DNA of 64,000 nt, from positions 59,174-123,173 of the forward strand of contig JAAYCL010000036.1 in assembly GCA_012729785.1 (NCBI GenBank), written 5' to 3'. This DNA is from Chlamydiota bacterium (lineage in GTDB: Bacteria > Auribacterota > Tritonobacteria > UBA1439). The translations under genes and the position numbers were made by a program. The first letter of the stretch is position 1. Each line of letters starts with the position of its first letter. The notes beneath the pieces were generated by a model, which did not search any database, was not told the origin of the DNA, and saw only the letters and a list, made by a program, of their open reading frames with translations. Positions 8,953 to 59,693 of the stretch are shown here, piece by piece.

Positions 8953-9035
8953 CTGTTCTACTCCGTGACCGGGTTCCAACGCGAATACCGATATATGCTA
9001 CCACAGCGCTGCGCCCCGCGCAACCGGTGTGCGGG

Positions 9036-10022: not shown

Positions 10023-10033
10023 CGGGGGCATCG

Positions 10034-10042
10034 TGGTATACT
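10034..10042 (+). promoter_or_regulatory. Putative extended -10 element TGgTATACT upstream of rfbC
   Basis: TGn plus TATACT at 10034-10042, 38 nt upstream of the rfbC ATG, followed by an AAAGGAG RBS. Confidence 0.3.
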
Positions 10043-10079
10043 CGTCCGGTGGCGCCGAAAATCGAAAGGAGTCGGAACG

Positions 10080-10535: not shown

Positions 10536-10579
10536 GCTCCCCTGTGCGGCCGCCGCCGTAAGGGGCGAAAGGAGGAGAG

Positions 10580-11317: not shown

Positions 11318-11337
11318 GGCCCCGGGAGGGGATGACG

Positions 11338-14095: not shown

Positions 14096-14269
14096 ATGAT
14101 CGACAAGGAGCTGCTGGAGATACTCGCGTGCCCGGCCTGCAAGGCGGAGGTGAAGCTCGAAGGGGAGAAGATCGTCTGCCTCGGCTGCGGGCGCCGCTAC
14201 CCGATCCGCGACGGCATCCCGATCATGCTGGTCGACGAGGCGGAGACGCCCGGCGCCAAGGAGGGATGA
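14096..14269 (+). CDS. Trm112-family small protein (UPF0434/YcaR-like), 57 aa
   Basis: The translation is MIDKELLEILACPACKAEVKLEGEKIVCLGCGRRYPIRDGIPIMLVDEAETPGAKEG. It has a CPxC...CxxC zinc-ribbon and the conserved P(I/V)xDGIP(I/V)ML motif. An [14 protein letters not shown] lies upstream. The ORF track does not list it because it is under 60 aa; instead an overlapping wrong-frame ORF (14023..14565) is listed. Confidence 0.7.
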   Translation: MIDKELLEILACPACKAEVKLEGEKIVCLGCGRRYPIRDGIPIMLVDEAETPGAKEG

Positions 14270-14270
14270 G

Positions 14271-15473: not shown

Positions 15474-15493
15474 AAACGAGGAACGGTATTCAC

Positions 15494-43804: not shown

Positions 43805-43832
43805 ACCGCGGCGCCCGCCCGCCGTGCGTCCC

Positions 43833-45908
43833 ATGCGCATCAGGATCCAATCGAAGATACTCGCCAGCTTCATGGCGATGGTCGCCCTGATCATCGCCCT
43901 GCTGCTCTTCACGCTCTTCTCGATCCGCATCATGGCCGACGGCACCCGCCGGCTGGTCTACGTGCAGAAGAAGTCGGGGCTCATCACCGACCTCCAGATG
44001 ACGCTCGACCGGGCGGTCACGGCCCTCGGCGAGTATATGGTCTCGGGGAAGAAGTCGCGCCGGGCGACGTTCATCCAGCTGGTCCTCTTCTACACGAAGA
44101 ACATCGAGGCGCTCGAGCGGTCCTCCCTCGCGGGCCCGGCGGGGAAAGGGACAGGCGACGCCCGCGAGCGCGCCGCCGTCGCCGCGCTCAAGGCCGAGAT
44201 CGCCGTCATCGACCGGAACGCCCGCGAGATCCTCTCCCTCGTCGACAGGATAGAGCGGGCGCAGGGGCACCGCCTCATCCAGGATGTCGCCGCCTCGGTG
44301 AAGGACGCGCTCGAGAAGAAGGCGGAGGGGGGGGGCGGGGGCGCGCCGTCGCAGGAGCTCGCGATGCTCGGCGGGCTGCTCGGCGTCAGCACCCGCGACG
44401 CCCAGCGGCGCCTCGCGGAGCTGGAGGTGCTGAGCCGGACCATCTCGGAGTCCGAGTCGCGCCTGAAGGAGCTCTTGCTCCAGCTCGTCGAGGCGAAGGA
44501 CCGGGCGCTCGAGAAGATCGCCGAGCTGCATGAGCTGGCCCAGCGGGAGGGGCTCCAGGCGATCGGGACGGCCACGCTCGCCGACCGGCGGGCGAGGAAG
44601 ATCAGCCTCGTCGGCGGGGTGATCGTCCTCGCCTGCGGGCTGGTGTTGGCGCTCTACCTGTCGCGGTCGTTCTCGCGGCCGATCTCCGATCTCGACCGCG
44701 GGGCGCGTCTCATCGGCGAGGGGGACTTCGATCACCGGATGGTGTTGGACACCGGGGACGAGCTGCAGGACCTCGCCGAGCGTTTCAACACGATGGCAAA
44801 GAGACTGAAGGCGTCGTACGGCGAGCTCGAGGAGCGCGTCCGCGCACGGACGCGCGAGCTCGAGGCGTCGAACCTGCAGCTGCGCCGGCTCTTCAACGGC
44901 ATCTCCGACGGCATCTCGGTCATCGACAGGGAATTCCGGATCGTCAACGTCAACGACGGCATCGCCGCCATGGTTGGACGTAACGGCGCGGAGCTTGTCG
45001 GCGGCACCTGCCACCGCGTCTACCGGGGGAGCGACAGCCCGTGCCCGGGCTGCCCCGTCGCCGAGACCTTCAGGTGCGGGACGACCTCCTCCGGGGAGGT
45101 CCGCTGGGACGTCCCCGGCGGCAAGGCGAGGGACGTGGAGATCTTCAGCTTCCCTCTCATCGAGGAGGAGGGGGCGGTGACGCACGTCATCGAGTACGCC
45201 AAGGACGTCAGCGAGAGGAAGGCGCTCGAGCGGAAGCTGTTCCAGTCGGCCAAGCTCGCCGGGATCGGCACCCTCGCCGCGGGCGTGGCGCACGAGATCC
45301 GCAACCCGCTGGGGATCATGAAGGCCTCGGCGGACATGATCAGACGGGGCAGCAAAGAGGGGGAGCAGAACTGGGAGCTCGCCGGTTTCCTGATGGAGGA
45401 GGTCGACCGTCTGAACCGCGTCGTGACGAGACTCCTCGACTTCGCGCGTCCCTCCGCGCCCAACAGCGCTCCGTGCGACCTCGCCGGGATCCTGGAGCGC
45501 GCGGTCGCCCTTGTCGGCCCGCAGCACCGTCTCCAGGACGTGGAGGTGGATCGCGCCTACGCCCCGGGGATCCCGCGCGTGCGCGCCGACGGGGAGCAGC
45601 TCTGCCAGGTCTTCCTGAACCTGATCTTGAACGCCGTGCAGGCGATGTCGGGGAAGGGGCGCCTCTCCCTCTCCACCGGAACGGGGGAGGGGGAGACGGT
45701 CGTGGCGAGCGTGGGCGACAGCGGCGGCGGCATCGTTGGGAAGGACCTGGAGCAGATCTTCGACCCGTTCTTCTCGACGAAGGAGGGCGGCGCGGGCCTC
45801 GGCCTCGCCATCGTCTACCGGATCGTGGAGGCGCACAAGGGGCGGATCGAGGTGAACAGCACGCCGGGCAAGGGGACCACCTTCACGGTGACGCTGCCGG
45901 CTGCCTGA
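43833..45908 (+). CDS. Sensor histidine kinase (transmembrane, HAMP, PAS, HisKA, HATPase_c)
   Basis: Two transmembrane helices flank a roughly 230-aa sensor domain. A HAMP-like segment is followed by a PAS domain with a CxxC pair (CPGCPVAETFRC). H-box HEIRNPLG, N-box and G2-box GGAGLGLAIV. Confidence 0.85.
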   Translation: MRIRIQSKILASFMAMVALIIALLLFTLFSIRIMADGTRRLVYVQKKSGLITDLQMTLDRAVTALGEYMVSGKKSRRATFIQLVLFYTKNIEALERSSLAGPAGKGTGDARERAAVAALKAEIAVIDRNAREILSLVDRIERAQGHRLIQDVAASVKDALEKKAEGGGGGAPSQELAMLGGLLGVSTRDAQRRLAELEVLSRTISESESRLKELLLQLVEAKDRALEKIAELHELAQREGLQAIGTATLADRRARKISLVGGVIVLACGLVLALYLSRSFSRPISDLDRGARLIGEGDFDHRMVLDTGDELQDLAERFNTMAKRLKASYGELEERVRARTRELEASNLQLRRLFNGISDGISVIDREFRIVNVNDGIAAMVGRNGAELVGGTCHRVYRGSDSPCPGCPVAETFRCGTTSSGEVRWDVPGGKARDVEIFSFPLIEEEGAVTHVIEYAKDVSERKALERKLFQSAKLAGIGTLAAGVAHEIRNPLGIMKASADMIRRGSKEGEQNWELAGFLMEEVDRLNRVVTRLLDFARPSAPNSAPCDLAGILERAVALVGPQHRLQDVEVDRAYAPGIPRVRADGEQLCQVFLNLILNAVQAMSGKGRLSLSTGTGEGETVVASVGDSGGGIVGKDLEQIFDPFFSTKEGGAGLGLAIVYRIVEAHKGRIEVNSTPGKGTTFTVTLPAA

Positions 45909-45999: not shown

Positions 46000-47370
46000 A
46001 TGAAGCGGCGGGTGCTGGTGGTGGACGACGAGCGGAACATGCTCCGGTTGGCGGAGATGATGCTGGGACGGGCCGGCTACGAGCCGCTCCTGGCCTCCAA
46101 CGCCGCGGAGGCGATCGACCTCCTCGCCGCGCGGCGCGTGGACCTCGTGCTGACCGACCTCAAGATGCCGGGCGGGATGAGCGGGATCGACCTGCTCCGG
46201 GAGATGCGGCGCCGGGAGATTTCGACCCCGGTGGTCATCATGACCGCCTTCGGTACCATCAAGGGGGCCGTCGAGGCGATGCGGCACGGGGCGAGTGACT
46301 TCGTCCTCAAGCCGTTCGACGTCGAGAGCATCGAGACGGTCATCGCGAAGGTCTTCGAACTGGAGAAGGTGAAGCGGGAGAACGTCTACCTCAGGGAGGA
46401 GCTCGTCCGCGCCCGCGCGGCCCCCGAGATCGTGGGCGCGAGCGGGAGGATGCGCGCGATCCACTCCCTGATCGACCGTGTCGCCCCCACCGACGCCTCG
46501 GTGCTGCTCTTCGGCGAGACCGGCACGGGGAAGGAGCTCCTCGCGCGCTCGATCCATGAAAAAAGCGCGCGGCGGGAGGGGCTCTTCGTGGCGGTGAACT
46601 GCGCGGCGATCCCCGCTCCCCTCCTGGAGAGCGAGCTGTTCGGCCATGTGCGCGGGGCGTTCACCGGGGCGGCCGCGGAGCGGACCGGCAGGTTCGAGAA
46701 GGCGGACGGGGGCAGCATCTTCTTCGACGAGATCGGGGATATGGAGCCCGCGCTCCAGGCGAAGATACTCCGCGTCCTGCAGGAGAAGGAGTTCGAGAAG
46801 GTGGGGAGCAACGAGACGATCATCGTCAACGTGCGCGTGATCGCCGCCACGAACCGGGACCTCCGTCAGATGATCCGGGACCGTCTCTTCCGGGAGGATC
46901 TGTACTACCGTTTGAACGTCGTCAGCATCACGGTCCCGCCGCTCCGCGAGCGGACCGAGGATATCCCGGCGCTCGTGGAGCAGTTCGTCGCGAAATATTC
47001 GCGGGAGTGGGGCAAGGAGACCGCCCCGCCCCCGGCGGAGGTGCTGCGGGCCCTCGCCGCCTACCCGTGGCCCGGCAACGTCAGGGAGATGCAGAACGTC
47101 ATCGAACGGGCGGTGGCGGTGAACAGCACCGGCAGGATCGGCCTCGAGGACCTCCCCCCCGAGATCGTCCGGGGCGCCGCCGCGACGCCGGAGGGGGGCG
47201 TTTCCCCCGCTCCGCCGCCGGGCCTCGACGGGGCGGTCGCCGCCCTCGAGCGGGAGCTGATCGAACAGGCGCTCCGCGATTCCAACGGGGTGAAGGCACG
47301 CGCGGCGAAGCTGCTGGGGATCAGCGAGCGGAACCTGTGGTACAAGCTGAAGAAATACGGTATCGTCTGA
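46000..47370 (+). CDS. Sigma54-dependent response regulator, NtrC family
   Basis: Receiver domain (DDE...D...K). AAA+ domain with GETGTGKE and the GAFTGA sigma54-contact motif. C-terminal Fis-type helix-turn-helix. Confidence 0.9.
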   Translation: MKRRVLVVDDERNMLRLAEMMLGRAGYEPLLASNAAEAIDLLAARRVDLVLTDLKMPGGMSGIDLLREMRRREISTPVVIMTAFGTIKGAVEAMRHGASDFVLKPFDVESIETVIAKVFELEKVKRENVYLREELVRARAAPEIVGASGRMRAIHSLIDRVAPTDASVLLFGETGTGKELLARSIHEKSARREGLFVAVNCAAIPAPLLESELFGHVRGAFTGAAAERTGRFEKADGGSIFFDEIGDMEPALQAKILRVLQEKEFEKVGSNETIIVNVRVIAATNRDLRQMIRDRLFREDLYYRLNVVSITVPPLRERTEDIPALVEQFVAKYSREWGKETAPPPAEVLRALAAYPWPGNVREMQNVIERAVAVNSTGRIGLEDLPPEIVRGAAATPEGGVSPAPPPGLDGAVAALERELIEQALRDSNGVKARAAKLLGISERNLWYKLKKYGIV

Positions 47371-47390: not shown

Positions 47391-48194
47391 ATGCATATGT
47401 CGGCGCGTGTGGCGGCGTTGCTGCTCGCGACCTCGGCCGCCGTCGGCCTCGGGGCCGAGGAGTCGCCGCGCCCGGCCGCCCCGTCCGCCGCCCCCCGGCG
47501 GCTCAGCCCCGCGGACGCGGAGTTCTGGCGGGAGCTCGCCCCGCGGCCGGCCGACCTCTGGGGGGAGACCACGGAGACGTTCAGGGGCTGGAACCTCGCC
47601 GCGGTCGCCGCGACCGCGGGGCTCGCGGGGGGGCTCGCCTTCCTCGACGCCGACATGCAGAAACCGTGGCGCGACGGCGACAGGCTGATCGGCGCCGACC
47701 TCTGCGACGTCGGCGACCTGGTCGGGCACCCGGGGGTCCAGGCCGGCGTGATGGGCCTCACCTACACGCTCGGCCAGGCGCTCGGCGACGAGACGCTCGC
47801 CAAAACCGGGAAGTCGATGGCGGAGACGATGATCTTCACCTCCCTCGCCACGGTCGCCCTCAAGGGGATCTTCAACCGCGAACGGCCCGACGGCGACGAC
47901 CATATGTCGTTCCCCTCGTGGCACGCCTCCGCGACCTTCGGGAACGCCACCGTCCTCGCGGAGTACTACGGGTGGAAGGCGGCGGTCCCGGCGTACCTCG
48001 TCTCGGCGTTCGTCGCCTGGAGCCGGGTCGAGGACAACAAGCATTTCGTGAGCGACGTGGTGGCGGGCGCCGCCGTGGGCTGCATCTTCGGGCACGCGGT
48101 GTCGCGCTACAACCTCAGGGTCCATCCGGCCGTCTCGATCGAACCGGTGCTGCTGGATGAGGGGGCCGGCGTCCAGGCCCGCGCGCGGTTCTGA
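47391..48194 (+). CDS. PAP2-family (type 2 phosphatidic acid phosphatase-like) phosphatase, secreted or membrane-associated
   Basis: Signal peptide. PAP2 motifs KGIFNRERP, SFPSWHAS and SRVEDNKHFVSDV. Starts 21 nt after the response regulator. Confidence 0.8.
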   Translation: MHMSARVAALLLATSAAVGLGAEESPRPAAPSAAPRRLSPADAEFWRELAPRPADLWGETTETFRGWNLAAVAATAGLAGGLAFLDADMQKPWRDGDRLIGADLCDVGDLVGHPGVQAGVMGLTYTLGQALGDETLAKTGKSMAETMIFTSLATVALKGIFNRERPDGDDHMSFPSWHASATFGNATVLAEYYGWKAAVPAYLVSAFVAWSRVEDNKHFVSDVVAGAAVGCIFGHAVSRYNLRVHPAVSIEPVLLDEGAGVQARARF

Positions 48195-48244: not shown

Positions 48245-50356
48245 ATGAACGGAGCATCGAGGCGGATCGCCTTTCTGGCCGCCGCGGGCATCTGCCTGCG
48301 CGCGACGGCGGCCTCCGCCTACATCGGGCCGGGCGCGGGGTTCGCCTTCCTCGGCTCGTTCGTCTTCATACTGGGGGGGATGCTCCTGGCGGTGGTCGCG
48401 CTGCTCACCCTCCCCGCGCGCATCCTCCTGGCGCGCCTGCGCGGCAGGAAGGCGTTCCGGAGGGCCGCGGCGGAGCGGGTCGTCATCGTCGGCCTCGACG
48501 GCCTCGACCCCGCCCTCGCGTCGGGGTGGATGCGGGAGGGGAAGCTGCCGAATCTCTCCGCCCTCGCCGCCGAGGGGTGCTTCTCCCCGCTGGCGACCTC
48601 GAATCCCCCGATCTCCCCGGTGGCGTGGTCGTCGTTCATCACCGGCTCGAACCCGGGCAAGCACAACGTATTCGATTTCCTGATGCCCGACCGGCGGAAC
48701 TGCCTCCCCGCCCTCTCCTCCGCCTCGATCGAACCCACGCGGAGGACGCTGCGCCTCGGGCGGCTGCGGGTCCCCCTCGGGAAGCCGACCATCCGGCTCC
48801 TCCGGAAAGGGGTCCCGTTCTGGAGGATACTCGGGGAGCACGGGATCCGCAGCGTCGTGCTCAAGGTGCCGATCACCTTCCCCCCGGAGAGATTCCGCGG
48901 CATGCTCCTCTCCGGCCTCTGCGCGCCTGATCTCAAGGGCTCCCAGGGGACATTCGCCTTCTACACCACGGCCGACCCTCCCGCCGGCTCCGTCACCGGG
49001 GGCTGCCGCGTGCGCCTGGAGGGGGACGGTCCGGTGTTCGAGACGCGCATCTCCGGTCCCCGCGACCCGTACGGGAGGGGGTTCGATTTGTCGATCCCGA
49101 TGCGGATCGAGGTCGATGCGGCGCGGGGGCTCGCCCGCCTGCGGATAGCCGGACGCTCGCACACGGTGCGGGCGGGGACGCTCTCGGACTGGATCCCTCT
49201 CGTCTTCCGCGCCCCGCTCGGCACGCGGGTCCGCGGCATCGCGCAGTTCTTCCTGAAACAGGTTGCCCCGCGCGTGGAGCTCTACCTCTCCCCCGTCAAC
49301 ATCGACCCCGAGAACCCGGCCCTCCCGGTGTCGCACCCGCGCGTCTACGCCTCGTACCTGGCCAAGGTCGTCGGCCCGTTCGCCACGCTGGGGCTCCCGC
49401 AGGACACCTGGGCGCTGAACGAGGGGATCCTCACCGACGATGCGTTCCTCCAGCAGGCGTACCGGATCCACGACAGGCTCGAAGAGATCTTCTTCCACTC
49501 CCTGAAGAGGATGCGGAGAGGGATGCTCTGCTGCGTCTTCGACACCACCGACGCCGTCCAGCACGAGTTCTGGCGCTACATGGCCGACGGCCACCCGGCG
49601 CTGAAGGGAGGGGAGCCCCCCCCCGGCCCCCCGGTGATCGAACAACTGTACCGGAGGATGGACGGCCTGATCGGGAGGGTGCGGGCGGCGCTGGGGCCGG
49701 ATGACGTGTTGATGGTCGTCTCCGACCACGGCTTCACGCTGTTCAAACGCTGCGTGAACCTGAACCGGTGGCTGTTCGAGAACGGCTACCTCGCCCTCAA
49801 GGACGGCGCCTCGTCGTGCGGGGACTGGTTCGAGGGGGTCGACTGGGAGCGGACGAGGGCGTACGGGTTCGGCCTTTCGGGGCTCTACCTCAACCTGAAG
49901 GGGCGGGAGAGCCGGGGCACGGTGACGCCGTCGGAGGCGGGGGCGCTGAAGCGGGAGATCGCGGGGAGGCTCGCGGGGCTCAGGGACGTCGCGGGGGGCG
50001 CGGAGGCGGTCGCAGCGGTGTACGATACCGCCGCCGTCTACGCCGGCCCCTACGTCGAGAACGCCCCGGACCTCGTGGTGGGGTACGCGCCGGGGTTCCG
50101 CTGCTCGTGGGAATCGGTCACCGGCAGGGTCGGCGCGCAGGTCTTCTCGGACAACGACAAGGCGTGGAGCGCCGACCATTGCATCGACCACCGGTTCGTG
50201 CCGGGGGTCTTCTTCTGCAGCCGGCCGGCGGCGGCGGAGGCACCGCGCATCGTGGACATCGGCCCGACCGTGCTCGACCTGTTCGGCGTCGCGCCCCCCG
50301 CGCACATGGACGGCCGGCCGCTCGGCGTGGCGGGGAAAGGGATGCGGAACGGATGA
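48245..50356 (+). CDS. Alkaline-phosphatase-superfamily protein, type I phosphodiesterase/nucleotide pyrophosphatase-like, N-terminal membrane anchor (paralog 1)
   Basis: A transmembrane helix, then VVIVGLDGLDP (metal site) and ATSNPPISPVAWSSFITGSNPGKH (nucleophile region homologous to the nucleotide pyrophosphatase TFPNHYSIVTG). C-terminal VVSDHGF metal site. 703 aa. Confidence 0.75.
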   Translation: MNGASRRIAFLAAAGICLRATAASAYIGPGAGFAFLGSFVFILGGMLLAVVALLTLPARILLARLRGRKAFRRAAAERVVIVGLDGLDPALASGWMREGKLPNLSALAAEGCFSPLATSNPPISPVAWSSFITGSNPGKHNVFDFLMPDRRNCLPALSSASIEPTRRTLRLGRLRVPLGKPTIRLLRKGVPFWRILGEHGIRSVVLKVPITFPPERFRGMLLSGLCAPDLKGSQGTFAFYTTADPPAGSVTGGCRVRLEGDGPVFETRISGPRDPYGRGFDLSIPMRIEVDAARGLARLRIAGRSHTVRAGTLSDWIPLVFRAPLGTRVRGIAQFFLKQVAPRVELYLSPVNIDPENPALPVSHPRVYASYLAKVVGPFATLGLPQDTWALNEGILTDDAFLQQAYRIHDRLEEIFFHSLKRMRRGMLCCVFDTTDAVQHEFWRYMADGHPALKGGEPPPGPPVIEQLYRRMDGLIGRVRAALGPDDVLMVVSDHGFTLFKRCVNLNRWLFENGYLALKDGASSCGDWFEGVDWERTRAYGFGLSGLYLNLKGRESRGTVTPSEAGALKREIAGRLAGLRDVAGGAEAVAAVYDTAAVYAGPYVENAPDLVVGYAPGFRCSWESVTGRVGAQVFSDNDKAWSADHCIDHRFVPGVFFCSRPAAAEAPRIVDIGPTVLDLFGVAPPAHMDGRPLGVAGKGMRNG

Positions 50357-52320
50357 ACAGACGGAGAACGGCGACGGCGGCGGTGGCCGCGGCGCTCGTC
50401 TGCGCGTGCCTCCTCCCGGGCTGCGCGCCGCGGGATCGCTCCGGCGGGAAGCGGGTCGTCGTCCTCGCCTTCGACGGGATGGACCCCCGGATCGTGCGCG
50501 AGATGTTCGCCAAAGGCGGGCTGCCGAACATGAAAAGACTGTCGGAGACCGGCGGCTTCACCGAGCTCTGGTCGAGCGTCCCGCCGCAGAGCCCGGTCGC
50601 CTGGTCCAATTTCATCACCGGCAAGAACCCCGGGGGGCACGCCATCTTCGACTTCATCCACCGGGATCCCGCCACCTACCTGCCGTTCCTCTCCACCTCG
50701 GAGACGATCCCCCCGCGCCGCACGCTCGCCCTCGGCGACTACATCCTGCCCCTCTCCGCAGGGACCGTGCTCCTCAAGCGCGAGGGGAAGGCGTTCTGGG
50801 AGTACCTCGAGGAGGGCGGGATACCGGCGACGATCTTCAGGATCCCCTCCAACTTCCCCCCCGTCCCGGGCCGCGCGCAAAGCCTCTCCGGGATGGGAAC
50901 GCCGGACCTGATGGGCACCTACGGGATCTACCAGTTCTTCACGAGCGACCCCGCCGACATCCCGAAGGACCCCTCGGGCGCCGAGTTCACGCTGGTCGAG
51001 CCCCGGGACGGCGCCGTGCGGGCGGAGATCGCGGGCCCCGCGAACTCCTACCGCAAGGAGGCGCCGCGGCTCTCCATCGCCTTCACCGCCTGGATCGACG
51101 AGGCGCACGGCGCCGCCAGGATCGATCTGCCCGGCGAAAGCCTGATCCTGCGGCAGGGGGAGTGGAGCGACTGGCTGGTCCTCGAGTTCAAGCCCCTCGC
51201 GCTGGCCCCGGCGGTGCGGGGGATCTGCCGCCTGTACCTGAAGGAGGTCCGGCCCCGATTCAGACTGTACGTCACTCCGATCAACATCGACCCGAAGGCC
51301 CCCGCACTCCCGATCGACACCCCCCGCGGCTACGCCGCCGGGGTGGCGGAGGCGGTCGGCTATTTCTACACGCAGGGGATGCCGGAGAACACGAAGACGC
51401 TCACCAACGACACCTTCACCATCGACGAGTTTTACACGCACTTCCGGATGGTTCTGGACGAGAACCACCGCCTCTTCGACCATATCTGGGAACGGTACCG
51501 CGACGGCCTCCTCTTCTACTACTACTCGAGCACCGACCTCGGCACGCACATCTTCTGGCACCTCCGCGACCCGAAGCATCCGATCCACAACGCGCAGGCG
51601 CGCGCGCGCCTCGGCGACGTGATCGAGGAGACCTACGCGGAGATGGACGGGGTGGTCGGGAAGGTGATGGCCGAGATCGGCGACGGCGCCACGCTCATCG
51701 TGATGTCGGACCACGGCTTCGCGCCGTTCTACGTCTCGTTCAATCTGAACGGCTGGCTGCGGGAGAACGGCTACCTGGTCCTGAGGGACGGGGCGGCGGA
51801 GGGGTCGCTCTTCACGAACGTGGACTGGCGGAAGACGCGCGCCTACGCCATCGGCCTGAACTCCCTCTACCTGAACCTGGCGGGGAGGGAGCGGGACGGG
51901 ATCGTCGATCCGGGGGCGGAGCGGGACGCGCTCCTGCGGGAGCTCGCCGCGAAGCTGGAGGCGGTGCGGGACCCGGGGAACGGCTCGGCCGTGATCAAGC
52001 GGGTCTACCGCGCGGACGAGGTCTACTCGGGCGAGTATGCGGGGCGGGCCCCCGACCTTGTGGTCGGCTACGACTGGGGGTACCGGACCTCGTGGGAGAG
52101 CGCCCTGGGCGACGTGAAGGGGACGCTCCTCGCCACGAGCACCGAGGAGTGGAGCGGCGACCATTGCGGCGCGATGGAGGTCGTGCCGGGCATCCTCTTC
52201 TCGAACAAGAGGATCGCCCTCACGGATCCGCACCTCTACGATCTGACGCCGTCCATCCTCGCGGAGTTCGGGCTCCCGAAGCCCGCGGATATGATCGGCC
52301 GCAACGTCTTCGAACAGTGA
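50353..52320 (+). CDS. Alkaline-phosphatase-superfamily protein, type I phosphodiesterase/nucleotide pyrophosphatase-like lipoprotein (paralog 2)
   Basis: Lipobox LLPGC. VVVLAFDGMDP, SSVPPQSPVAWSNFITGKNPGGH and VMSDHGF motifs. ATGA overlap with paralog 1. About 40% identical to paralog 1 in colinear blocks. Confidence 0.75.
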   Translation: MNRRRTATAAVAAALVCACLLPGCAPRDRSGGKRVVVLAFDGMDPRIVREMFAKGGLPNMKRLSETGGFTELWSSVPPQSPVAWSNFITGKNPGGHAIFDFIHRDPATYLPFLSTSETIPPRRTLALGDYILPLSAGTVLLKREGKAFWEYLEEGGIPATIFRIPSNFPPVPGRAQSLSGMGTPDLMGTYGIYQFFTSDPADIPKDPSGAEFTLVEPRDGAVRAEIAGPANSYRKEAPRLSIAFTAWIDEAHGAARIDLPGESLILRQGEWSDWLVLEFKPLALAPAVRGICRLYLKEVRPRFRLYVTPINIDPKAPALPIDTPRGYAAGVAEAVGYFYTQGMPENTKTLTNDTFTIDEFYTHFRMVLDENHRLFDHIWERYRDGLLFYYYSSTDLGTHIFWHLRDPKHPIHNAQARARLGDVIEETYAEMDGVVGKVMAEIGDGATLIVMSDHGFAPFYVSFNLNGWLRENGYLVLRDGAAEGSLFTNVDWRKTRAYAIGLNSLYLNLAGRERDGIVDPGAERDALLRELAAKLEAVRDPGNGSAVIKRVYRADEVYSGEYAGRAPDLVVGYDWGYRTSWESALGDVKGTLLATSTEEWSGDHCGAMEVVPGILFSNKRIALTDPHLYDLTPSILAEFGLPKPADMIGRNVFEQ

Positions 52321-52450: not shown

Positions 52451-52642
52451 ATGGCCAGGAAGGTGAGGATCGAGGAGGGGCTGTACGGGAAGATCGAGAA
52501 GGCCGCGGCCGCGGCGGGCTATCCGAACGTCGATGAGTTCGTGGTCCATCTTCTCGAGAAGGCCGTCGCCGGAGTCGGCGGCGGAGACGACGACGCGGAA
52601 CGGGTGAAGGAGCGGCTCAGGGGGCTCGGGTACCTCTCATGA
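52451..52642 (+). CDS. Ribbon-helix-helix (CopG/Arc/NikR-N-like) small DNA-binding protein
   Basis: 63 aa: KVRIEEGLYGKIEKAAAAAGYPNVDEFVVHLLEKAV fits a beta-strand, helix, helix ribbon-helix-helix fold. ATGA overlap with the downstream membrane protein. Confidence 0.5.
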   Translation: MARKVRIEEGLYGKIEKAAAAAGYPNVDEFVVHLLEKAVAGVGGGDDDAERVKERLRGLGYLS

Positions 52643-53454
52643 TCAGTGCCGCGGGACAGGCGCTGACGCGCCTCTTCGATCTGATTCTCCTCCCGGCGAG
52701 GGGCGCCGCGCCGGTCTGGGGGATCGCCCTCGCCGCCCTCCTGACGGCCGCGGGCGTCCTCATCTCCTACCGGCTCGTCTCCGACCAGGATGCGATACGC
52801 CGCCTCAAGAAGCGCGTCCAGGGGCACCTCCTCGGCATCTACCTGTACCGGGACGACCCGCGCGCGATGCTCGGCTCCCTCGGCCGGGTCTGGTCAAACT
52901 CCATGCGGTACCTGGCATATTCCCTCGTCCCGTTCGCGGTCGCGTTCGTCCCCGTGGCGCTCGTCTGCCTGCAGCTCGATCTCCGCTACGCGCACCGTCC
53001 GCTTCGCCCGGGTGAACGCATGACCGTCTCCGTCGAGCTCGACCCAAGCGCCCCGCCCCCCGCGCTCTCCTCCACCGGCGGATTGCAGATCGAGACGGCG
53101 CCCCTGGCGATCGGCGGCACCGGGGAGACGAACTGGAGGGTGCGCGCGGTCGCGCAGGGCGCGCAGGCGGTCACGGTCGCCGTCGGCGAGGAGACGCTCG
53201 CCCTCCCCGTCGCGGTCGGCGGGGCGGCGCGGCCGCTCTGCCGCCGGCGGCTTCGGTCCCCCGTGCGGCAGGGGCTTCTCTGCCCCGCGGGCGATCCGAT
53301 ACCCCGCGGGAGCGCGGTGCGGGCGGTGCGGGTCTCCTACCCCCCCGAGCGGGTCCGCCTGGCGGGGATGCGCCTGCACTGGAGCGCCTCCTTTTTCGTG
53401 CTCGCCCTCGCCTTCGGCCTGCTTCTGAAAAGGCCGTTCGGAGTTGATTTCTGA
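52639..53454 (+). CDS. Hypothetical membrane protein (about 4 transmembrane helices), no recognisable family
   Basis: Hydrophobic segments at the N-terminus, middle and C-terminus, with an Ala/Gly-rich soluble loop. Translationally coupled to the ribbon-helix-helix gene. Confidence 0.4.
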   Translation: MISAAGQALTRLFDLILLPARGAAPVWGIALAALLTAAGVLISYRLVSDQDAIRRLKKRVQGHLLGIYLYRDDPRAMLGSLGRVWSNSMRYLAYSLVPFAVAFVPVALVCLQLDLRYAHRPLRPGERMTVSVELDPSAPPPALSSTGGLQIETAPLAIGGTGETNWRVRAVAQGAQAVTVAVGEETLALPVAVGGAARPLCRRRLRSPVRQGLLCPAGDPIPRGSAVRAVRVSYPPERVRLAGMRLHWSASFFVLALAFGLLLKRPFGVDF

Positions 53455-53472
53455 CCTCGGGGCGGCTATACT
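53444..53472 (+). promoter_or_regulatory. Putative sigma70-type promoter, TTGATT -17 nt- TATACT, for cysDN
   Basis: -35 TTGATT at 53444-53449, a 17-nt spacer, -10 TATACT at 53467-53472. It lies 43 nt before the cysD TTG start, with an AAGGA RBS in between. Confidence 0.4.
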
Positions 53473-53514
53473 GTCGCTCTCCAAACAGTGCGCCCGGCAA
53501 CAAAAGGACGACCA

Positions 53515-54318
53515 TTGGACCACCTCTCTGAACTCGAGCACAAGACGATCTATGTCGTGCGGGAGGCGTACAGCCGCTTCCGCAACATCGGGATGCTCTG
53601 GTCGATCGGCAAGGACTCGACCTCGCTCCTCTGGATCTGCCGCAAGGCGTTCTTCGGGAAGGTCCCGTTCCCGGTCATCCACATCGACACCGGCCACAAG
53701 TTCAAGGAGATCTACGCATTCCGGGACCGCTACGCGAAGGAGTGGGGGCTCGACCTGCGGGTCGCGAAAAACGACGCGGCGCTCGCCGCCGGGATGGGGC
53801 CCGACAAGGGGGCGAAGCTCGACTGCTGCCATGCCCTCAAGACGCAGGCCCTGAAGGAGTTCATCGCCCGCGAGAAGCTCGACGCCATCCTCCTCGGCAT
53901 CCGCCGCGACGAGCACGGCATCCGGGCCAAGGAGCGCTACTTCTCGCCGCGCGACGAGAAGTTCGAGTGGGACTACCAGAACCAGCCCCCCGAGCTCTGG
54001 GACCAGTTCAAGTCCAGCAGCGAGGGGCACCACCACCTCCGCGTGCATCCGATCCTCCACATGACCGAGACCGACATCTGGCGTTACGTTCGGCGGGAGG
54101 GGATGCCGGTGGTCGACCTGTATTTCGCCAAGGGGGGGAGGCGCTACCGCTCGATCGGCTGCGCCTGCTGCTGCGCGACCGTGGAGTCGGACGCGGAGAC
54201 CGTCGACGCCGTCATCCGCGAGATAGAGACGACGAACGTCTCCGAGCGTTCGGGGCGGGCGCAGGACAAGGAAGACGCGTACACGATGCAGAAGCTGCGG
54301 GCGCTCGGCTACATGTGA
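53515..54318 (+). CDS. cysD: Sulfate adenylyltransferase subunit 2
   Basis: PP-loop SIGKDS. Colinear with E. coli CysD from its N-terminus ([17 protein letters not shown] versus THLRQLEAESIHIIRE). TTG start with an AAGGA RBS 6 nt upstream. The upstream in-frame GTG at 53488 lacks an RBS. Confidence 0.9.
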
Positions 54319-54343: not shown

Positions 54344-55594
54344 ATGGCGCAGACACGCGGGCGCGAGAACATGAAGATCGTCATCGTGGGCCATATGGAC
54401 CACGGCAAGTCCACCCTCATCGGGCGGCTCCTCTACGATACCCGTTCGCTCTCCCCCGACCGGATGGAGGTCATCCGGAAGACGTGCGAGGAGATGGGGA
54501 AGCCGGTCGAGTTCGCCTTCGTGATGGACCACCTCCGCGAGGAGCGGGAGCGGGGGATGACGATCGACACCGCCCAGACCTTCTTCCACACCGCGCGCCG
54601 CGACTACGTGATCATCGACGCCCCCGGGCACAAGGAGTTCATGAAGAACATGATCACCGGGGCGAGCCAGGCCGAGACGTCCATCCTCATCGTGGATGTG
54701 CATGAAGGGGTGATGGAGCAGACGCGGCGGCACGCCTATGTGCTCGGGATGCTCAACCTGAGGAAGAACATCCTGGTCCTGAACAAGATGGACCTCGTCG
54801 GTTACGACAAGGCGGCGTTCGAGCGCGTGCGCGGCGAGATCGCCGCCTTCCTCAAACGTCTGGGGATCGCCCCCTCGTTCGTCATTCCGGTCTCGGGGAC
54901 CGGCGGGGACAACTTCGCCTCCCCCTCCGGGAAGATGCCCTGGTACAAGGGGCCGACGCTCATCGACGCCCTCGACACCCTCGAAAAGGACCGGGACCTC
55001 AGGGAGAAGCCGCTCCGGATGCCCGTGCAGGACGTTTACGAGCGGGAGGCGGGGCGCATCGTCGCGGGCAGGATCGAATCCGGCTCGCTTCGCGAGGGGG
55101 ACGCGGTGAGGATCTTCCCCGGGGAGGAGCGGGCGACCGTGGCGAAGGTTCTCGAGTTCGGCGCGACGCGCGCCTCCGCGGAGGCGGGGGAGTGCATCGG
55201 CGTGCTGCTCTCGGGGGGGGCGGCGCCGCGGCGCGGCGATCTCCTGGGAGCCCTCGGCGACCCCCCGCGCCTCGGTACGGCGGTCAGCGCGAACCTGTTC
55301 TGGATGGCCGCGGAGGCGTGCGCGGCAGGCGAGAGGCTCACGTTGCGCCTTGGAACGCAGGAGACGCCCTGCAGGATCGAAACGATCGGGAAGAGGATCG
55401 ACTCCTCGACGCTCGACGTCATCGAGGAGAACGCCCGCGCGCTCGAAGAGACCGAGGTGGGCGAGGTCCTGGTCCGCACCGAACGCCCGGTCGCCTTCGA
55501 GCTCTTCAGCGACATCCCCGAATTGGGCCGTTTCGTCCTCGAGAGGGGGAACGACATCGTCGCCGGGGGGATCATCACCCGTCCCGGCCCCTGA
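54344..55594 (+). CDS. cysN: Sulfate adenylyltransferase subunit 1 (GTPase), short form without APS kinase domain
   Basis: G1 [10 protein letters not shown]3 DAPGH and G4 NKMD motifs. 416 aa ending after translation-factor domain III. No CysC domain. Confidence 0.9.
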
Positions 55595-55610: not shown

Positions 55611-56897
55611 ATGCCTCCCCGCCCGCGCGCGGTCATCGTCGGCCTCGACGGCGTACCCCACCGGCTCATCGAGCGGTACGCCTCCGACGGGACGATGCCG
55701 AACCTCGGGGCGATACTCGCGACCGGGACGCTCCGGAGGATGGCCTCCTCCATCCCGGAGATCTCCTGTGTCGCCTGGAGCACGATCATCACCGGCAGGA
55801 ACCCGGGCGTTCACGGCATCTACGGGTTCATGAACCTGCGGCCGGGCACCTACCAGTTCTCGTTTCCCGCGTTCGGAGACCTGAAGGCGCCTCCGTTCTG
55901 GGAGGAGATGCCGGACACGCGGGCCGCGATCGTCAACATCCCGGGCACCTATCCCGCGCGCACCATGAACGGGGTTACCGTGTCGGGTTTCGTAGCCCTC
56001 GACCTCGCGCGGGCGACATATCCGAAACACCTCATCCCGGAGCTCGAGCGGCTCGGCTACCGGATCGACGTGGACGCGGCCAAGGGCCACTCCGACATCG
56101 ACGCCTTCCTGCGCGACCTCGACGCGACGCTCGAGGCGAGGATCCGGGCGGCCCGCTTCCTGCTCGCACGGGAGCGCTGGGATATCTTCTTCCTCGCCTT
56201 CACCGGGACCGACCGGCTCTCCCATTTCCTCTTCGAGGCGTTCGAGAACGACGCCCACCCCCGCGCCGGCGCCTTCCGGGCGCACTTCAAACGGATCGAC
56301 GGCTATCTCGGCGAGCTGTACGAGACAGTCGGGGCCGACGATCTCCTTGTGCTGCTCTCCGACCACGGCTTCGACCTCGTCGAGACGGAGATCAACGTCA
56401 ACAGGGCCCTCGCCGACGCCGGCTTTCTGAAGATCGCGAGCCCGACACGGGATTCGTTCGAAGGGGTGGGGGAGGGGAGCCGGGCGTTCGCCCTCGATCC
56501 CGCGCGGATTTATGTCAACCTCCGGGGGCGGTACCCGCGCGGATGCGTCGATCCCGGCGACCGGGAGCGCGTCGCCCGGGACGTCGCCGGCGCCCTCCAG
56601 GATCTCTCGGTGAACGGGAGGCCGGTGATCCGCAGCGTCTTCTCGAGAGAGGAGCTCTATGCGGGGAGCCGGATCGCCGAGGCCCCCGATCTCGTGCTCC
56701 TGCCCCGGCGGGGGTTCGATCTGAAGGGGCGCCTCGCCGCACCGGCGCTGGTCTCCAGGGGCGTCTTCACCGGGATGCACACGCACGACGACGCGTTCCT
56801 CTTCGTGCGATCCTCGGCCATCCCGCCGTCGGAGATCCCCGCCGCGCCGTGGGTCGGGGATGTGCGCGCCCTCGTCGAGCGCGGGCTCGCCGGCTAG
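55611..56897 (+). CDS. Alkaline-phosphatase-superfamily protein, type I phosphodiesterase/nucleotide pyrophosphatase-like, cytoplasmic (paralog 3)
   Basis: No signal peptide. VIVGLDGVPH, ASSIPEISCVAWSTIITGRNPGVH and LLSDHGF motifs parallel paralogs 1 and 2. AAAGGAG RBS. Confidence 0.75.
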   Translation: MPPRPRAVIVGLDGVPHRLIERYASDGTMPNLGAILATGTLRRMASSIPEISCVAWSTIITGRNPGVHGIYGFMNLRPGTYQFSFPAFGDLKAPPFWEEMPDTRAAIVNIPGTYPARTMNGVTVSGFVALDLARATYPKHLIPELERLGYRIDVDAAKGHSDIDAFLRDLDATLEARIRAARFLLARERWDIFFLAFTGTDRLSHFLFEAFENDAHPRAGAFRAHFKRIDGYLGELYETVGADDLLVLLSDHGFDLVETEINVNRALADAGFLKIASPTRDSFEGVGEGSRAFALDPARIYVNLRGRYPRGCVDPGDRERVARDVAGALQDLSVNGRPVIRSVFSREELYAGSRIAEAPDLVLLPRRGFDLKGRLAAPALVSRGVFTGMHTHDDAFLFVRSSAIPPSEIPAAPWVGDVRALVERGLAG

Positions 56898-57094: not shown

Positions 57095-58744
57095 ATGAAC
57101 GCGAACAAGCGGCTCTACTCGATCAGCCCCTCCGGGGCTAAATTCCCGCTGCCCCGTCCGGAGGAGTACCCCAGGGAGTTCGCCCGGGTGAAGAAACTCG
57201 CCGCGGCCCACCGAAAGGAGAAGCGGGAGGTCGTGGTGGTGATGGGGGTCGGGTTCGTCGGCGCCGTGATGGCGGCGATCGTCGCGGACAGCAGGGGGAA
57301 GGGCGGCAGGCCGTCGAAGTTCGTGATCGGGATGCAGCGCCCGAGCGTCCGCTCCTACTGGAAGATACCGCTCCTCAACCGCGGCGTCCCCCCGGTGGAG
57401 GCGGAGGACCCCGAGGTGGCGCGGATCATCCGCCGCTGCGTCCTCGAGACGAAGACCCTTGTCGCGACCTGGGTCTACGACGTGCTCTCCCTCGCCGACG
57501 TGGTCGTCGTGGACGTCCAGTGCGACTACGCCAAGTACGCCCTCGGCGACGTGCGCAAGGGGTGGGCCGACATCGCCGCCCTCGAGGAGTCGCTGGAGAT
57601 CATCGCCCGGCATATCCGGCCGGAGACGCTGGTCCTCATCGAGACGACCGTGCCCCCCGGGACGACCGAGCAGGTGGCGTACCCGATCATGCGGAAAACG
57701 TTCCGGAAGCGCGGCATCGCCTCCGATCCGCTCCTCGCCCACAGCTACGAGCGGGTGATGCCGGGGAAGGAGTACGTCGCCAGCATCCGCGACTTCTGGC
57801 GCGTCTGCAGCGGGATCAATCCCCGGGCCCGGGAACGGGTGGTGCGGTTCTTGAACGAAATCCTGAACACGAAGCGGTACCCGCTCACCGTCCTGGACCG
57901 TCCGATCGAGTCGGAGACCGCGAAGATCGTCGAGAACAGCTACCGCGCCGCCTGCCTCGCGTTCCTCGACGAGTGGAGTCTCTTCGCCGAGCGGAACGGC
58001 GTGGACCTGGTCAAGGTGATCAACGCGATCAAGGTGCGCCCCACGCACTCCAACATCATCTTCCCGGGCCCCGGCATCGGCGGCTACTGCCTGCCGAAGG
58101 ACGGCGGGCTCGGGATGTGGGCCTACCGGCATATCCTGGGCTTCGAGGACGAGATCTTCAAGATCACCCCGCTCGCCATCGACATCAACGACACGCGAGG
58201 CCTCCATGCGGCCCAGATCACGCGGGACGCCCTGCGGAACATGAACCGCCCGGTCGCCGCGGCGGAGATCCTGCTCCTCGGCGCCTCGTATCGCGAGGAC
58301 GTCGGCGACACCCGCTACAGCGGGTCCGAGATCATTGCGCGGCGCCTCTCGGAGATGGGGGCGGAGATCAGGGTCCATGACCCGTACGTGCGGTCGTGGC
58401 CGGAGCTGGAGAAGCAGGAGTCGTACCCCGGGAAGGGGCACGGGAAGAAGGGGTTCTTCCGCGGGCAAAACCGGCTCGCGGAGGTGCGGGTCTGCAGCGA
58501 CCTCGAGAAGGGGCTCTCCGGCGCGGACGCGGTGATCTTCGCCGTCCGGCACGCGCCGTATCTGCGCCTCGATCCCGACGAGGTGGTCCGCATGATCGGG
58601 GGGGCCGCCGCGATCATCGACTGCTTCGGCATGCTCGACGACGCGAAGATCAAGCGGTACTTCGAGCTCGGCTGCGAGGTGAAGGGGCTGGGGCGCGGGC
58701 ATATCCAGCGGATCAAGGACGAGGTGCGGAGGGAGCGGCGGTAG
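57095..58744 (+). CDS. Nucleotide-sugar dehydrogenase (UDP-glucose/GDP-mannose dehydrogenase family), long form
   Basis: Rossmann motif VVVVMGVGFVGAVMAAIVA and the catalytic GGYCLPKD region. 549 aa, with a roughly 45-aa basic N-terminal extension before the first beta-strand. Confidence 0.85.
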   Translation: MNANKRLYSISPSGAKFPLPRPEEYPREFARVKKLAAAHRKEKREVVVVMGVGFVGAVMAAIVADSRGKGGRPSKFVIGMQRPSVRSYWKIPLLNRGVPPVEAEDPEVARIIRRCVLETKTLVATWVYDVLSLADVVVVDVQCDYAKYALGDVRKGWADIAALEESLEIIARHIRPETLVLIETTVPPGTTEQVAYPIMRKTFRKRGIASDPLLAHSYERVMPGKEYVASIRDFWRVCSGINPRARERVVRFLNEILNTKRYPLTVLDRPIESETAKIVENSYRAACLAFLDEWSLFAERNGVDLVKVINAIKVRPTHSNIIFPGPGIGGYCLPKDGGLGMWAYRHILGFEDEIFKITPLAIDINDTRGLHAAQITRDALRNMNRPVAAAEILLLGASYREDVGDTRYSGSEIIARRLSEMGAEIRVHDPYVRSWPELEKQESYPGKGHGKKGFFRGQNRLAEVRVCSDLEKGLSGADAVIFAVRHAPYLRLDPDEVVRMIGGAAAIIDCFGMLDDAKIKRYFELGCEVKGLGRGHIQRIKDEVRRERR

Positions 58745-58754
58745 GCTTGCGAAG

Positions 58755-59693
58755 TCAGCGACCGGGGTGCGGCGGCGGGGCAGCCGTCTTCCCGCAGACC
58801 TCCCGCGCGACGAAGCGCGCCAGGGAGCCGCAGATGCTCTGCGCCACGTCGTCGGGAACCCCCTCCGGCGTTCTCGATTTGAACCGCATGTCGCACTGGT
58901 CGTTGACATAGTCGACCGAGACCCACCGCATCGAATCGGTCAGGGCGATCTCGGTCGAGAAGAAGTTCAACCGCGCGATCGCGCGGATCTCGCGCGTGAT
59001 CGCCTCCATCCTCCCCAGCCCCCATCGCGCCGCCTCGTCCGTCGTCACCCGTTCGTAGATGTGCCGTTGCGGGTCCCACCAGCAGAGCAGGGTGTCACCC
59101 CCGGCGTAGTAGGCGCGGAACCAGGCCTTCCTCCCCTCGATGAGCCTCGGGACGATATTCTCCTGGACGAGGATCCGGTCGTGCCTGAACTCCATCCGCG
59201 CCGCCTGCACCTCCGCGAGGGAACGCGCGCCCACCAGGACCCCGAGGCCGCCGCCTCCGTGCGCGGGCTTGACGATGAACGGAACCCCCAGCTCCCCGAG
59301 GACGGGGAGCGCCTCCGCGGGGTCGTCGTCCCTGAAGACCGGCAGGATGATTGTGCGGGGGACGTCGATGCCGCGGATCGAGAACTCGTGGTGCATCGCG
59401 GCCTTGTCGATCGCCCGCTCGACGTCGGGGAGCGGGTTCACGCAGAGCGTCTCCGTGTTTCCGAGCGCGGCGGCGAGCGGGACGAAAGCGGGGTTCGTGT
59501 CGGAGGCGCGGTCGAAGAACGCCCTAAAGGCGAGCTCCCCCGAGGCCACCGCGCGCTCGATCTCGGCGAGGCTCCCGGGATCCACGACGCAGGTGGAGAG
59601 GCCGCACCCCAGGCAGTTCCGGCGGAGGAGGGCGATGAAATCCTTGTCGTACTTCCATTCCCAGGCGATGCAGATATCGAGTGTCGTGGTCAT
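58755..59693 (-). CDS. ATP-grasp domain protein (RimK/glutathione-synthetase-like fold), function unknown
   Basis: PFIVKPAHGGGGLGVLVGARS (ATP-grasp glycine-rich loop and Lys) and a downstream acidic Mg-binding region. 312 aa. Confidence 0.6.
   Translation of the reverse strand: MTTTLDICIAWEWKYDKDFIALLRRNCLGCGLSTCVVDPGSLAEIERAVASGELAFRAFFDRASDTNPAFVPLAAALGNTETLCVNPLPDVERAIDKAAMHHEFSIRGIDVPRTIILPVFRDDDPAEALPVLGELGVPFIVKPAHGGGGLGVLVGARSLAEVQAARMEFRHDRILVQENIVPRLIEGRKAWFRAYYAGGDTLLCWWDPQRHIYERVTTDEAARWGLGRMEAITREIRAIARLNFFSTEIALTDSMRWVSVDYVNDQCDMRFKSRTPEGVPDDVAQSICGSLARFVAREVCGKTAAPPPHPGR

Follow-up and report, generated by a model that had tools for sequence, protein, structure and literature searches.

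The subject of this analysis is a 64,000-nucleotide (nt) window, the whole 64 kb stretch of contig JAAYCL010000036.1 that was analysed, from a bacterium of the phylum Auribacterota; its G+C content is about 70%. The window encodes three enzymes, designated P1, P2 and P3, with the fold of the nucleotide pyrophosphatases/phosphodiesterases (NPP). P1 and P2 form a four-gene module with two accessory genes, and P3 stands directly behind cysD and cysN, the genes of an ATP sulfurylase that produces adenosine 5'-phosphosulfate (APS). Gene coordinates follow the numbering of the window, and all genes of the module are on the + strand.

48245 to 50356, + strand: P1, an NPP-fold enzyme of the alkaline-phosphatase (AlkP) superfamily, 703 amino acids (aa), with a transmembrane (TM) helix at residues 36-54 and a beta-rich insert of ~150 aa.
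50353 to 52320, + strand: P2, a 655-aa paralogue of P1 (counted from its ATG) with a lipoprotein-type signal; ATGA overlap with P1 at 50353-50356.
52451 to 52642, + strand: a 63-aa ribbon-helix-helix (RHH)-like protein with its own GGGAGG ribosome-binding site.
52639 to 53454, + strand: m270, a 271-aa membrane protein; ATGA overlap with the 63-aa open reading frame (ORF).
53488 to 54318, + strand: cysD, sulfate adenylyltransferase small subunit (NCBIfam NF003587, 340.9 bits, cut-off 195; aligned to 1ZUN chain A), 33 nt after m270.
54344 to 55594, + strand: cysN, GTPase subunit, 416 aa (TIGR02034, 350.7 bits, cut-off 336.1), without an APS-kinase domain.
55611 to 56897, + strand: P3, a 428-aa NPP-fold enzyme without signal peptide and without the insert, of an orthogroup associated with CysDN or with genes like SQD1, the uridine diphosphate (UDP)-sulfoquinovose synthase.

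The original prediction read P1 and P2 as translationally coupled, NPP-like paralogues in tandem and P3 as a third copy following cysN. The ORFs have exactly the coordinates, lengths and P1/P2 overlap that it gave, both colinear blocks that it quoted are present in the P1 and P2 translations, and P3 does follow cysN, starting 16 nt past the cysN stop (55594) with a ribosome-binding site of its own. The tandem pair is real, but it is not the whole unit, as the two further module genes at 52451-52642 and 52639-53454 had been missed. P1 and P2 share 42% identity across 624 aa (E=2e-159), and P1 and P3 share 34% in two blocks, the ~150-aa insert being absent from P3. Scores against the Pfam family PF01663 are 99.7, 106.2 and 135.6 bits for P1, P2 and P3, respectively (cut-off 23), with the match split by the insert in P1 and P2.

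An alignment of P1, P2 and P3 with related types of other genomes served to compare the active sites. All three proteins, and the relatives too, keep the nucleophile and six metal ligands (D85, S124, D436, H440, D494, H495 and H645 in P1 numbering); a check for the loss of any ligand found none, in keeping with the earlier claim that each copy has the nucleophile and both metal sites. The quoted nucleophile motif is matched by every one of them, with the sequences SNPPISPVAWSSFITGSNPGKH, SVPPQSPVAWSNFITGKNPGGH and SIPEISCVAWSTIITGRNPGVH. The proposed alignment with NPP and PhnA-class enzymes places this serine where it was expected: in P3 it falls at the position of the catalytic Thr64 of phosphonoacetate hydrolase, marked by the T64A mutant chain 3T02, and in the profile of the P1 family it aligns with the NPP nucleophile and with the sulfatase cysteine. 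An NPP-type three-dimensional core was also found, the top structural neighbours being ENPP6 and ENPP7. Protein lengths agree with those of the orthologues (P1 ~690-727, P2 646-670 and P3 427-430 aa); therefore there is no sign of pseudogenes, and the concern that a copy might be frameshifted is answered by three intact genes. P1, P2 and P3 are thus NPP-fold enzymes whose catalytic machinery is complete, and P1 and P2 belong to an uncharacterised NPP-fold branch of the AlkP superfamily, COG3379. Full-length relatives of P1, at 53-76% identity, number in the thousands in metagenome-assembled genomes (MAGs) of Auribacterota/PVC and Acidobacteriota, and the only annotation that they carry there is 'alkaline phosphatase family protein' or 'predicted AlkP superfamily phosphohydrolase/phosphomutase'. 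A sequence search of the PDB with P1 returned no usable match.

Three assignments to known families were rejected. Against the model of the phosphonoacetate hydrolase PhnA (TIGR02335), P3 scores 29.8 bits with a cut-off of 407.55, and P1 and P2 have no match. Scores for phosphopentomutase are far under the cut-off. The C/S-x-P/A-x-R motif of the formylglycine (type I) sulfatases is missing, the corresponding residues being S-P-V-A-W in P1 and P2 and S-C-V-A-W in P3. The Xanthomonas NPP, ENPP4, ENPP6, ENPP7 and PhnA, which belong to PF01663, share with P1-P3 the AlkP-type alpha/beta core, the same six Asp/His ligands of the bimetal site and a Ser/Thr nucleophile at the equivalent position. However, the identity to these enzymes is only 16-19%. 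The nucleophile is here a serine in a family-specific I-S-[PC]-V-A-W-S motif, P1 and P2 have the beta-rich insert with many invariant residues, and P1 has a unique invariant anchor made of YxGPGAGFA plus a TM helix. The gene context also differs from that of NPP and PhnA, being sulfate activation and sulfo-sugar synthesis rather than the use of nucleotides or phosphonates.

The distribution of the module was surveyed by searching a single genome of each GTDB species for the 270-aa family, which gave 80 loci that were mapped by phmmer (surveyed loci carry the prefix L). P1, P2, the 63-aa ORF and m270 are all co-located in about 74 of the 80 species-representative loci, from Auribacterota/PVC, Acidobacteriota, KSB1, Calditrichota and Bacteroidota. 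The gene order is P1-P2-small-m270 in PVC/Auribacterota, KSB1, Caldithrix and Bacteroidota-type MAGs, and P2-small-m270-P1 in Acidobacteriota. On contigs of Acidobacteriia and Ca. Euphemobacter, the module appears as two long AlkP genes, an ORF of 62-69 aa and an ORF of ~270 aa without a Pfam match. Every P1-type ORF, including those of other phyla, scores at least 638 bits against the P1 of the window, whereas the P2 of the same genome reaches only 499 bits; the reverse is true for P2-type ORFs, and every locus contains a single P1-type and a single P2-type gene. Since the scores separate the two orthogroups so cleanly, the duplication predates the spread of the module, and P1 and P2 are stable partners. 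The tandem pair is therefore not a local paralogue expansion; judged by these scores, P1 and P2 represent two orthologous groups of long standing, whose members are obligate neighbours, with no recent duplication.

Some loci depart from this arrangement or add to it. In L016, L018, L019, L020 and L023 (PVC-group), an m270-like gene occurs with no AlkP pair nearby. Among the Pfam-scanned neighbours in two of these loci, L020 and L023, are a PMT_2 glycosyltransferase, PRK (uridine-kinase family) and a UbiA prenyltransferase, the last two of which also occur 3' of the Euphemobacter module. In Acidobacteriota (L001:876-6741 and most of L038-L090), the module is flanked by one to three secreted PF00884 'sulfatase' proteins with TPR repeats. 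The formylglycine C/SxPxR motif is present in 0 of 81 of these PF00884 genes, which have T-x-P-S-H in its place, so that true sulfatases are unlikely among them.

The three enzymes are predicted to differ in location, as the original prediction held, with P1 membrane-anchored, P2 a lipoprotein and P3 soluble; the part that changes is the side of the membrane on which P1 would act. The N-terminus of P1 consists of a signal-peptide-like segment, the YxGPGAGFA motif and one strong TM helix, followed by 8 K/R residues. The motif is invariant in 58 of 58 aligned P1 homologues; ahead of it stands a hydrophobic segment, often with A-x-A at its end, and behind it come ~28 hydrophobic residues and then, in the next 25 positions, 8.3 K/R against 0.4 D/E. 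The catalytic domain begins ~5 residues past the membrane helix. By the positive-inside rule, this excess of K/R after the helix predicts that the catalytic domain faces the cytoplasm. P1 is thus probably held in the inner membrane, its active site on the cytoplasmic side, and is not exported; the anchor could be a helical hairpin, or a signal peptide plus a TM helix with its N-terminus out. For P2, the LLPGC that had been named as lipobox violates the strict rule by its proline at -2, and a PROSITE-like rule selects Cys19 in LVCAC instead. Yet nearly all of 50 P2 orthologues have a cysteine ending the signal-like segment at the Cys24 position, 10-20 residues ahead of the catalytic domain; 41 of 50 fit a loose lipobox pattern, and the exceptions listed also have the cysteine. 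Because this position is conserved, the lipoprotein call stands: P2 is a predicted lipoprotein of the periplasmic side, with Cys24, by homology, a better candidate for lipidation than Cys19. P3 has no signal peptide, as its catalytic domain starts at residue 6, and it is predicted to be soluble and cytoplasmic.

m270 is a possible TMCO1/YidC-like (Oxa1-type) membrane protein. Its AlphaFold2 model (pLDDT 90) begins with an N-terminal helix and TM1, continues with a basic coiled coil (10 K/R) and TM2, and ends with an Ig-like beta-sandwich (~120-247) and TM3; the coiled coil would be cytoplasmic and the Ig-like domain periplasmic. The succession of TM1, basic cytosolic coiled coil, TM2 and TM3 recalls the Oxa1 superfamily (YidC, archaeal DUF106/Ylp1, TMCO1, EMC3, GET1), and 'DUF106' is the JGI label on relatives of m270. 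In contrast to that superfamily, m270 reaches no Pfam threshold, has the ~125-aa Ig-like beta-sandwich between TM2 and TM3, and is always encoded with the AlkP pair; a role as insertase or scramblase is putative. Matches to Pfam EMC3_TMCO1 are all sub-threshold (13 of 57 homologues, best E 0.059), LapA_dom is matched weakly in 46 of the 57, and a Foldseek search of the PDB with m270 returned Ig-like matches only.

The 63-aa protein has a strand-helix-helix pattern and a conserved C-terminal tail, RLxGLGY[LI]. The protein of the window has a weak match to TacA1 only (E 0.09), and a PDB sequence search with it gave only matches of E>0.1. Among 17 homologues scanned, three match RHH_1 (best E 0.013) and two match FitA-like RHH, and a tandem-duplicated homologue, P0382, passes Pfam RHH_1 with 28.6 bits (cut-off 20.5). 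It should be mentioned that P0506, an 817-aa protein of the P1 type, has a small RHH-like domain at the C-terminus of its AlkP domain and may be a real fusion, and that the RHH-AlkP fusions P0433 and P0412 look like artefacts of frameshift or gene calling; none of the three is used as evidence. The tail itself is part of a wider pattern. The ORFs of the module loci (L011-L090) contain 184 copies of L-x-x-L-G-Y-[ILVM], against 6.2 in shuffled sequences, and the motif is the C-terminal tail of the 63-aa protein in 84 of 85 cases (region 52600-52642 in the window). The CysD of the window also ends in this motif (QKLRALGYM, region 54280-54318), the CysD of P. syringae ending in KKRQGYF. In KSB1-type loci it further ends APS kinases, an extra 580-aa AlkP protein and a ~100-aa ORF with two TM helices, and in 75 of 87 neighbouring PF00884+TPR proteins it is internal. 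The motif may be a shared docking or structural tail.

The genes cysD, cysN and P3 lie directly 3' of the module in the window and in L009, L012, L013, L014 and L036, and related genomes of PVC and Auribacterota share this order. The MAGs of KSB1/Cytophagia type (L025, L030, L031, L033, L034) have a different arrangement of sulfate genes 3' of the module. L025 shows it best: 3' of the module come a methyltransferase, a Sat::AlkP fusion, an APS kinase, a P3-like gene, another AlkP gene and a GT4 glycosyltransferase. The fusion (L025:11757-14393) is an 878-aa ORF that joins ATP sulfurylase (PUA_2 plus PF01747) to PF01663, and fusions of ~880 aa are likewise present in L030, L031 and L033. Their PF01663 domain is a sister branch to P3 with a threonine nucleophile (PP[IT]TVPAW). 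Further arrangements are found in L141 and L164. Two unrelated types of ATP sulfurylase, CysDN and Sat, are therefore found beside or fused to this NPP-fold family. Stand-alone copies of the AlkP type found in the Sat fusions occur near the acidobacterial modules L044, L045, L049 and L065.

P3 itself, named as a third copy in the original prediction, belongs to a separate, widespread orthogroup, tied to CysDN or to SQD1-like and thioredoxin genes, with relatives ~50% identical in Planctomycetota, Acetothermia, Anaerolineae, Nitrospinae and other phyla. One Planctomycetota and one Acetothermia contig carry CysD-CysN-P3 operons inside clusters for sugars or polysaccharides. To survey the neighbourhood, a metagenome scan and three contig look-ups were combined into 83 loci, with ratios taken only over loci with enough flanking DNA. 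CysN is upstream of P3 in 35 of 53 loci. A ~510-aa SQD1-like gene is downstream in 20 of 50, and in 20 of these 20 a thioredoxin gene stands alongside it; most of these 20 loci have no CysDN beside P3. Of the 37 loci in which both flanks could be read, 36 have CysN or the ~510-aa gene and 5 have both. L140 and L165 show the full order CysD-CysN-P3-SQD1-like-thioredoxin within Wzz/GNVR clusters, and no CysH-type APS reductase was found among the Pfam-scanned genes of these two loci. A canonical sulfotransferase was found in none of the annotated clusters, and an APS kinase in none of those of the CysDN type. P3 thus has a near-obligate association with sulfate activation or sulfo-sugar synthesis. 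The ~510-aa gene matches the whole of the UDP-sulfoquinovose-synthase model NF041015 with 401-421 bits, which stays under its equivalog cut-off (575). It is noted that the SQD1-like genes by P3 (L092, L099, L140, L162, L165 and about 25 others) have a Cys-rich N-terminal extension of ~90 aa, CxCWNCPA...ACGQ..., and that the thioredoxin gene always follows, as at L140:7439-8980 and 8886-9302. Neither CysC, Sat nor an SQD1-like gene was found in the 64 kb of the window, and no SQD1-like gene was found in the module loci.

The genes that adjoin this region on either side are listed below.

43824 to 45908, + strand: sensor histidine kinase (HAMP/PAS/HisKA/HATPase), 5' of the module.
46000 to 47370, + strand: NtrC-type sigma-54-dependent response regulator.
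47391 to 48194, + strand: PAP2-family (lipid) phosphatase (Pfam PAP2, 52.8 bits), 51 nt upstream of P1; start codon approximate.
57095 to 58744, + strand: NDP-sugar dehydrogenase-like protein, 549 aa, with the N-terminal, central and C-terminal Pfam domains of UDPG_MGDP_dh.
58755 to 59693, - strand: ATP-grasp (RimK/Ddl-like) gene, convergent with the preceding gene.

Orthologues of the histidine kinase with its HAMP, PAS, HisKA and HATPase Pfam domains occupy the same position in L007, L008 and L009, with synteny also in L011, L013 and L014, and response-regulator orthologues (Response_reg, Sigma54_activat, HTH_8) are directly 5' of the module in relatives. The kinase may regulate the module. 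The PAP2 gene is kept at the same position in L009, L010 and L014 and is missing from L007. The 549-aa dehydrogenase-like protein is unusually long and scores 186.4 bits against TIGR03026, slightly below the cut-off of 189.8; both this gene and the ATP-grasp gene have syntenic counterparts in L009 and L014. A search for the sigma-54 promoter consensus gave 5 weak matches in the whole window, against 9.9 expected, and none of them near the module. The scan for terminators and promoters was uninformative save for one sigma-70-like match, TTGATT-17-TATACT at 53444-53472, just 5' of cysD, which is the sole consensus match of its kind in 47-59 kb (0.5 expected by chance). Its position hints at a candidate internal promoter that would divide the module from cysDN-P3. 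About 30 kb 5' of the module, the regions 10023-12348 and 14154-18558 hold two GT4-like glycosyltransferase ORFs, recognised by phmmer, along with ORFs resembling dTDP-sugar and nucleotidyl-transferase genes, judged by translation only; together these ORFs suggest a polysaccharide cluster within the window.

We tentatively propose, as the account that we prefer without regarding it as established, that P1-P3 are NPP-fold transferases or hydrolases handling a group derived from APS, with P1, m270 and P2 acting across the inner membrane. ATP sulfurylases are usually fused to, or encoded beside, the enzyme that consumes their APS. Because of this habit, and because the clusters hold no other candidate, we infer that P3, and likewise the Sat-fused type, is the APS consumer of these cassettes. 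The same logic of gene order and fusion is seen in CysN-CysC fusions, Sat-APS kinase, PAPS (3'-phosphoadenosine 5'-phosphosulfate) synthase and CysH-type APS reductase with thioredoxin; here P3 comes after a CysDN that has no kinase domain, Sat carries a fused sister AlkP domain, and thioredoxin and a sulfite-using SQD1-like enzyme are encoded behind P3. Unlike in those pairs, the partner is an AlkP-fold metalloenzyme, neither a P-loop kinase nor of the PAPS-reductase fold, and no description of an AlkP-fold partner of ATP sulfurylase was found in the literature searched.

In the proposed sequence of events, soluble P3 would use up the APS produced by CysDN. Its serine nucleophile would attack the distal group of AMP-O-SO3 to give a sulfo-enzyme and AMP, much as NPP and phospho-transferases take the distal phosphoryl group of an NDP-X donor. 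The sulfuryl group may then pass to a thiol, from which thioredoxin would release sulfite for the SQD1-like enzyme, or alternatively to a hydroxyl of a sugar or lipid acceptor, which would be a sulfation. P1, m270 and P2 would constitute a cross-membrane relay, acting at both faces of the cytoplasmic membrane to install, transfer or trim the resulting sulfo- or phospho-ester on a lipid or glycan of the envelope, and the RHH-like protein would be a regulator or adaptor subunit. The predicted positions of P1 at the cytoplasmic face, m270 in the membrane and P2 at the periplasmic face suggest such a relay on a membrane-bound ester, although this is the weakest part of the proposal. EptA/MCR-1, LtaS and OpgB, all of which use a covalent Thr intermediate, are likewise membrane-associated AlkP-fold enzymes; their reaction places a phospho-alcohol group on lipids or glycans of the envelope. 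They differ in belonging to PF00884 and in having five-TM N-terminal domains and periplasmic catalytic domains, whereas P1 is predicted to face the cytoplasm from a hairpin or single anchor and P2 to be a lipoprotein; the transferase role of the latter two is putative.

Several points weigh against this proposal. The substrate of every family member is read from the gene neighbourhood alone, and the closest structures, ENPP6 and ENPP7, are lipid phosphodiesterases. To our knowledge, there is no precedent for a bimetallo serine enzyme that carries out efficient sulfuryl transfer. P2 cannot reach APS in the periplasm, and the relay therefore requires a further carrier. The topology calls come from simple hydropathy and charge rules. 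Within 10 kb of most acidobacterial and Euphemobacter modules there is no gene for sulfate activation, the usual neighbours of the acidobacterial ones being PF00884+TPR proteins that lack the formylglycine motif; given how few sulfate genes lie near these modules, the link of the core module to sulfur is weaker than that of P3. Finally, the loci share phylogeny, so that the tallies overstate the number of independent events.

The structural neighbours bring in a different account, which we consider unlikely, namely the remodelling of lipid head groups. P1 at the inner leaflet and P2 at the outer leaflet would be enzymes like phospholipase C, PAP2 would dephosphorylate their products, m270 would be a LapA- or scramblase-like helper, and CysDN, P3 and SQD1 would supply a sulfolipid or sulfo-glycan replacing phospholipid. 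It would suit the activities of ENPP6, a choline glycerophosphodiesterase, and ENPP7, an alkaline sphingomyelinase, the short distance of ~5 residues from the P1 catalytic domain to the membrane helix, the PAP2 gene directly 5' of P1, the weak LapA_dom matches in 46 of 57 m270 homologues, and the UDP-sulfoquinovose-synthase-like genes that adjoin P3 orthologues. PAP2, however, is kept with the module in close relatives only, the SQD1-like genes lie in Wzz/GNVR polysaccharide clusters rather than lipid clusters, and the window and the module loci lack an SQD1-like gene.

Less probable again is that P3 and the Sat-fused AlkP are helper hydrolases clearing pyrophosphate, 3'-phosphoadenosine 5'-phosphate or AMP for ATP sulfurylase, with the P1/P2 module serving an unrelated envelope function and lying adjacent by chance or through shared regulation. 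Enzymes of the AlkP superfamily are generally known to cleave phosphate mono- and diesters and pyrophosphate, eukaryotic ATP sulfurylases with fused pyrophosphatase domains offer a precedent for such a helper, and fusion or operon with two unrelated sulfurylase types would fit a role in the sulfurylase reaction itself; the scarcity of sulfate genes near acidobacterial modules agrees with a separate envelope function. This account is at odds with the 20 loci that combine P3 with SQD1-like and thioredoxin genes, mostly with no CysDN beside P3, and with the fact that GTP hydrolysis already drives CysDN. It also leaves the CysDN-P3 clusters without any APS-consuming enzyme, so that P3 stays the candidate, and the module lies next to sulfate-activation genes in at least four arrangements.

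The least probable of the alternatives takes the three proteins as independent nucleotide pyrophosphatases/phosphodiesterases working in three compartments, for example in the scavenging of phosphorus or nucleotides, with cysDN adjacent by accident: PF01663 membership, the NPP fold, the complete bimetal site with nucleophile and the differing targeting signals agree with it, but strict conservation of four genes including the membrane and RHH-like proteins, the predicted cytoplasmic orientation of P1, CysN or the SQD1-like gene beside P3 in 36 of 37 loci, the Sat::AlkP fusions, and the absence of any link to Pho regulation or transport genes in relatives do not. The label 'nucleotide pyrophosphatase-like' accordingly holds for the fold, while the gene context points to putative APS- or sulfur-linked chemistry rather than nucleotide scavenging. 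Each of these three explanations covers part of the data, and none covers the full set of associations.

Returning to the proposal that P1-P3 handle an APS-derived group, a stronger form of it would make COG3379 a family of APS-dependent sulfuryl transferases, with the P1/Oxa1-like/P2 relay carrying out PAPS-independent sulfation in the periplasm; in this full form we think it unlikely. P3 would then give its group to thioredoxin or the Cys-rich domain, a CysH-independent route to sulfite for UDP-sulfoquinovose synthase, with a sugar or lipid as second acceptor. The relay would load an activated sulfo group, e.g. a lipid phosphosulfate, at the cytoplasmic face and pass it across. The literature searched contained nothing on the function of the COG3379 family, on the four-gene module or on the CysDN-AlkP-SQD1-Trx cassette, and the Auribacterota genome paper makes no mention of the system.

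If the proposed APS-linked role holds, a large family with thousands of members at 90% clustering, known among soil Acidobacteriota as well as sediment and 'dark matter' phyla, would fill a gap in the sulfur metabolism of bacteria. APS kinase and APS reductase would be joined by a third kind of enzyme that consumes APS, and the family could explain the supply of sulfite or sulfate to sulfo-sugars and to polymers of the envelope beyond the cytoplasm. Whatever the chemistry, both the module of four genes and the CysD-CysN-AlkP(-SQD1-like-thioredoxin) cassette are clear-cut units, and their recognition would correct the annotation of many genomes.

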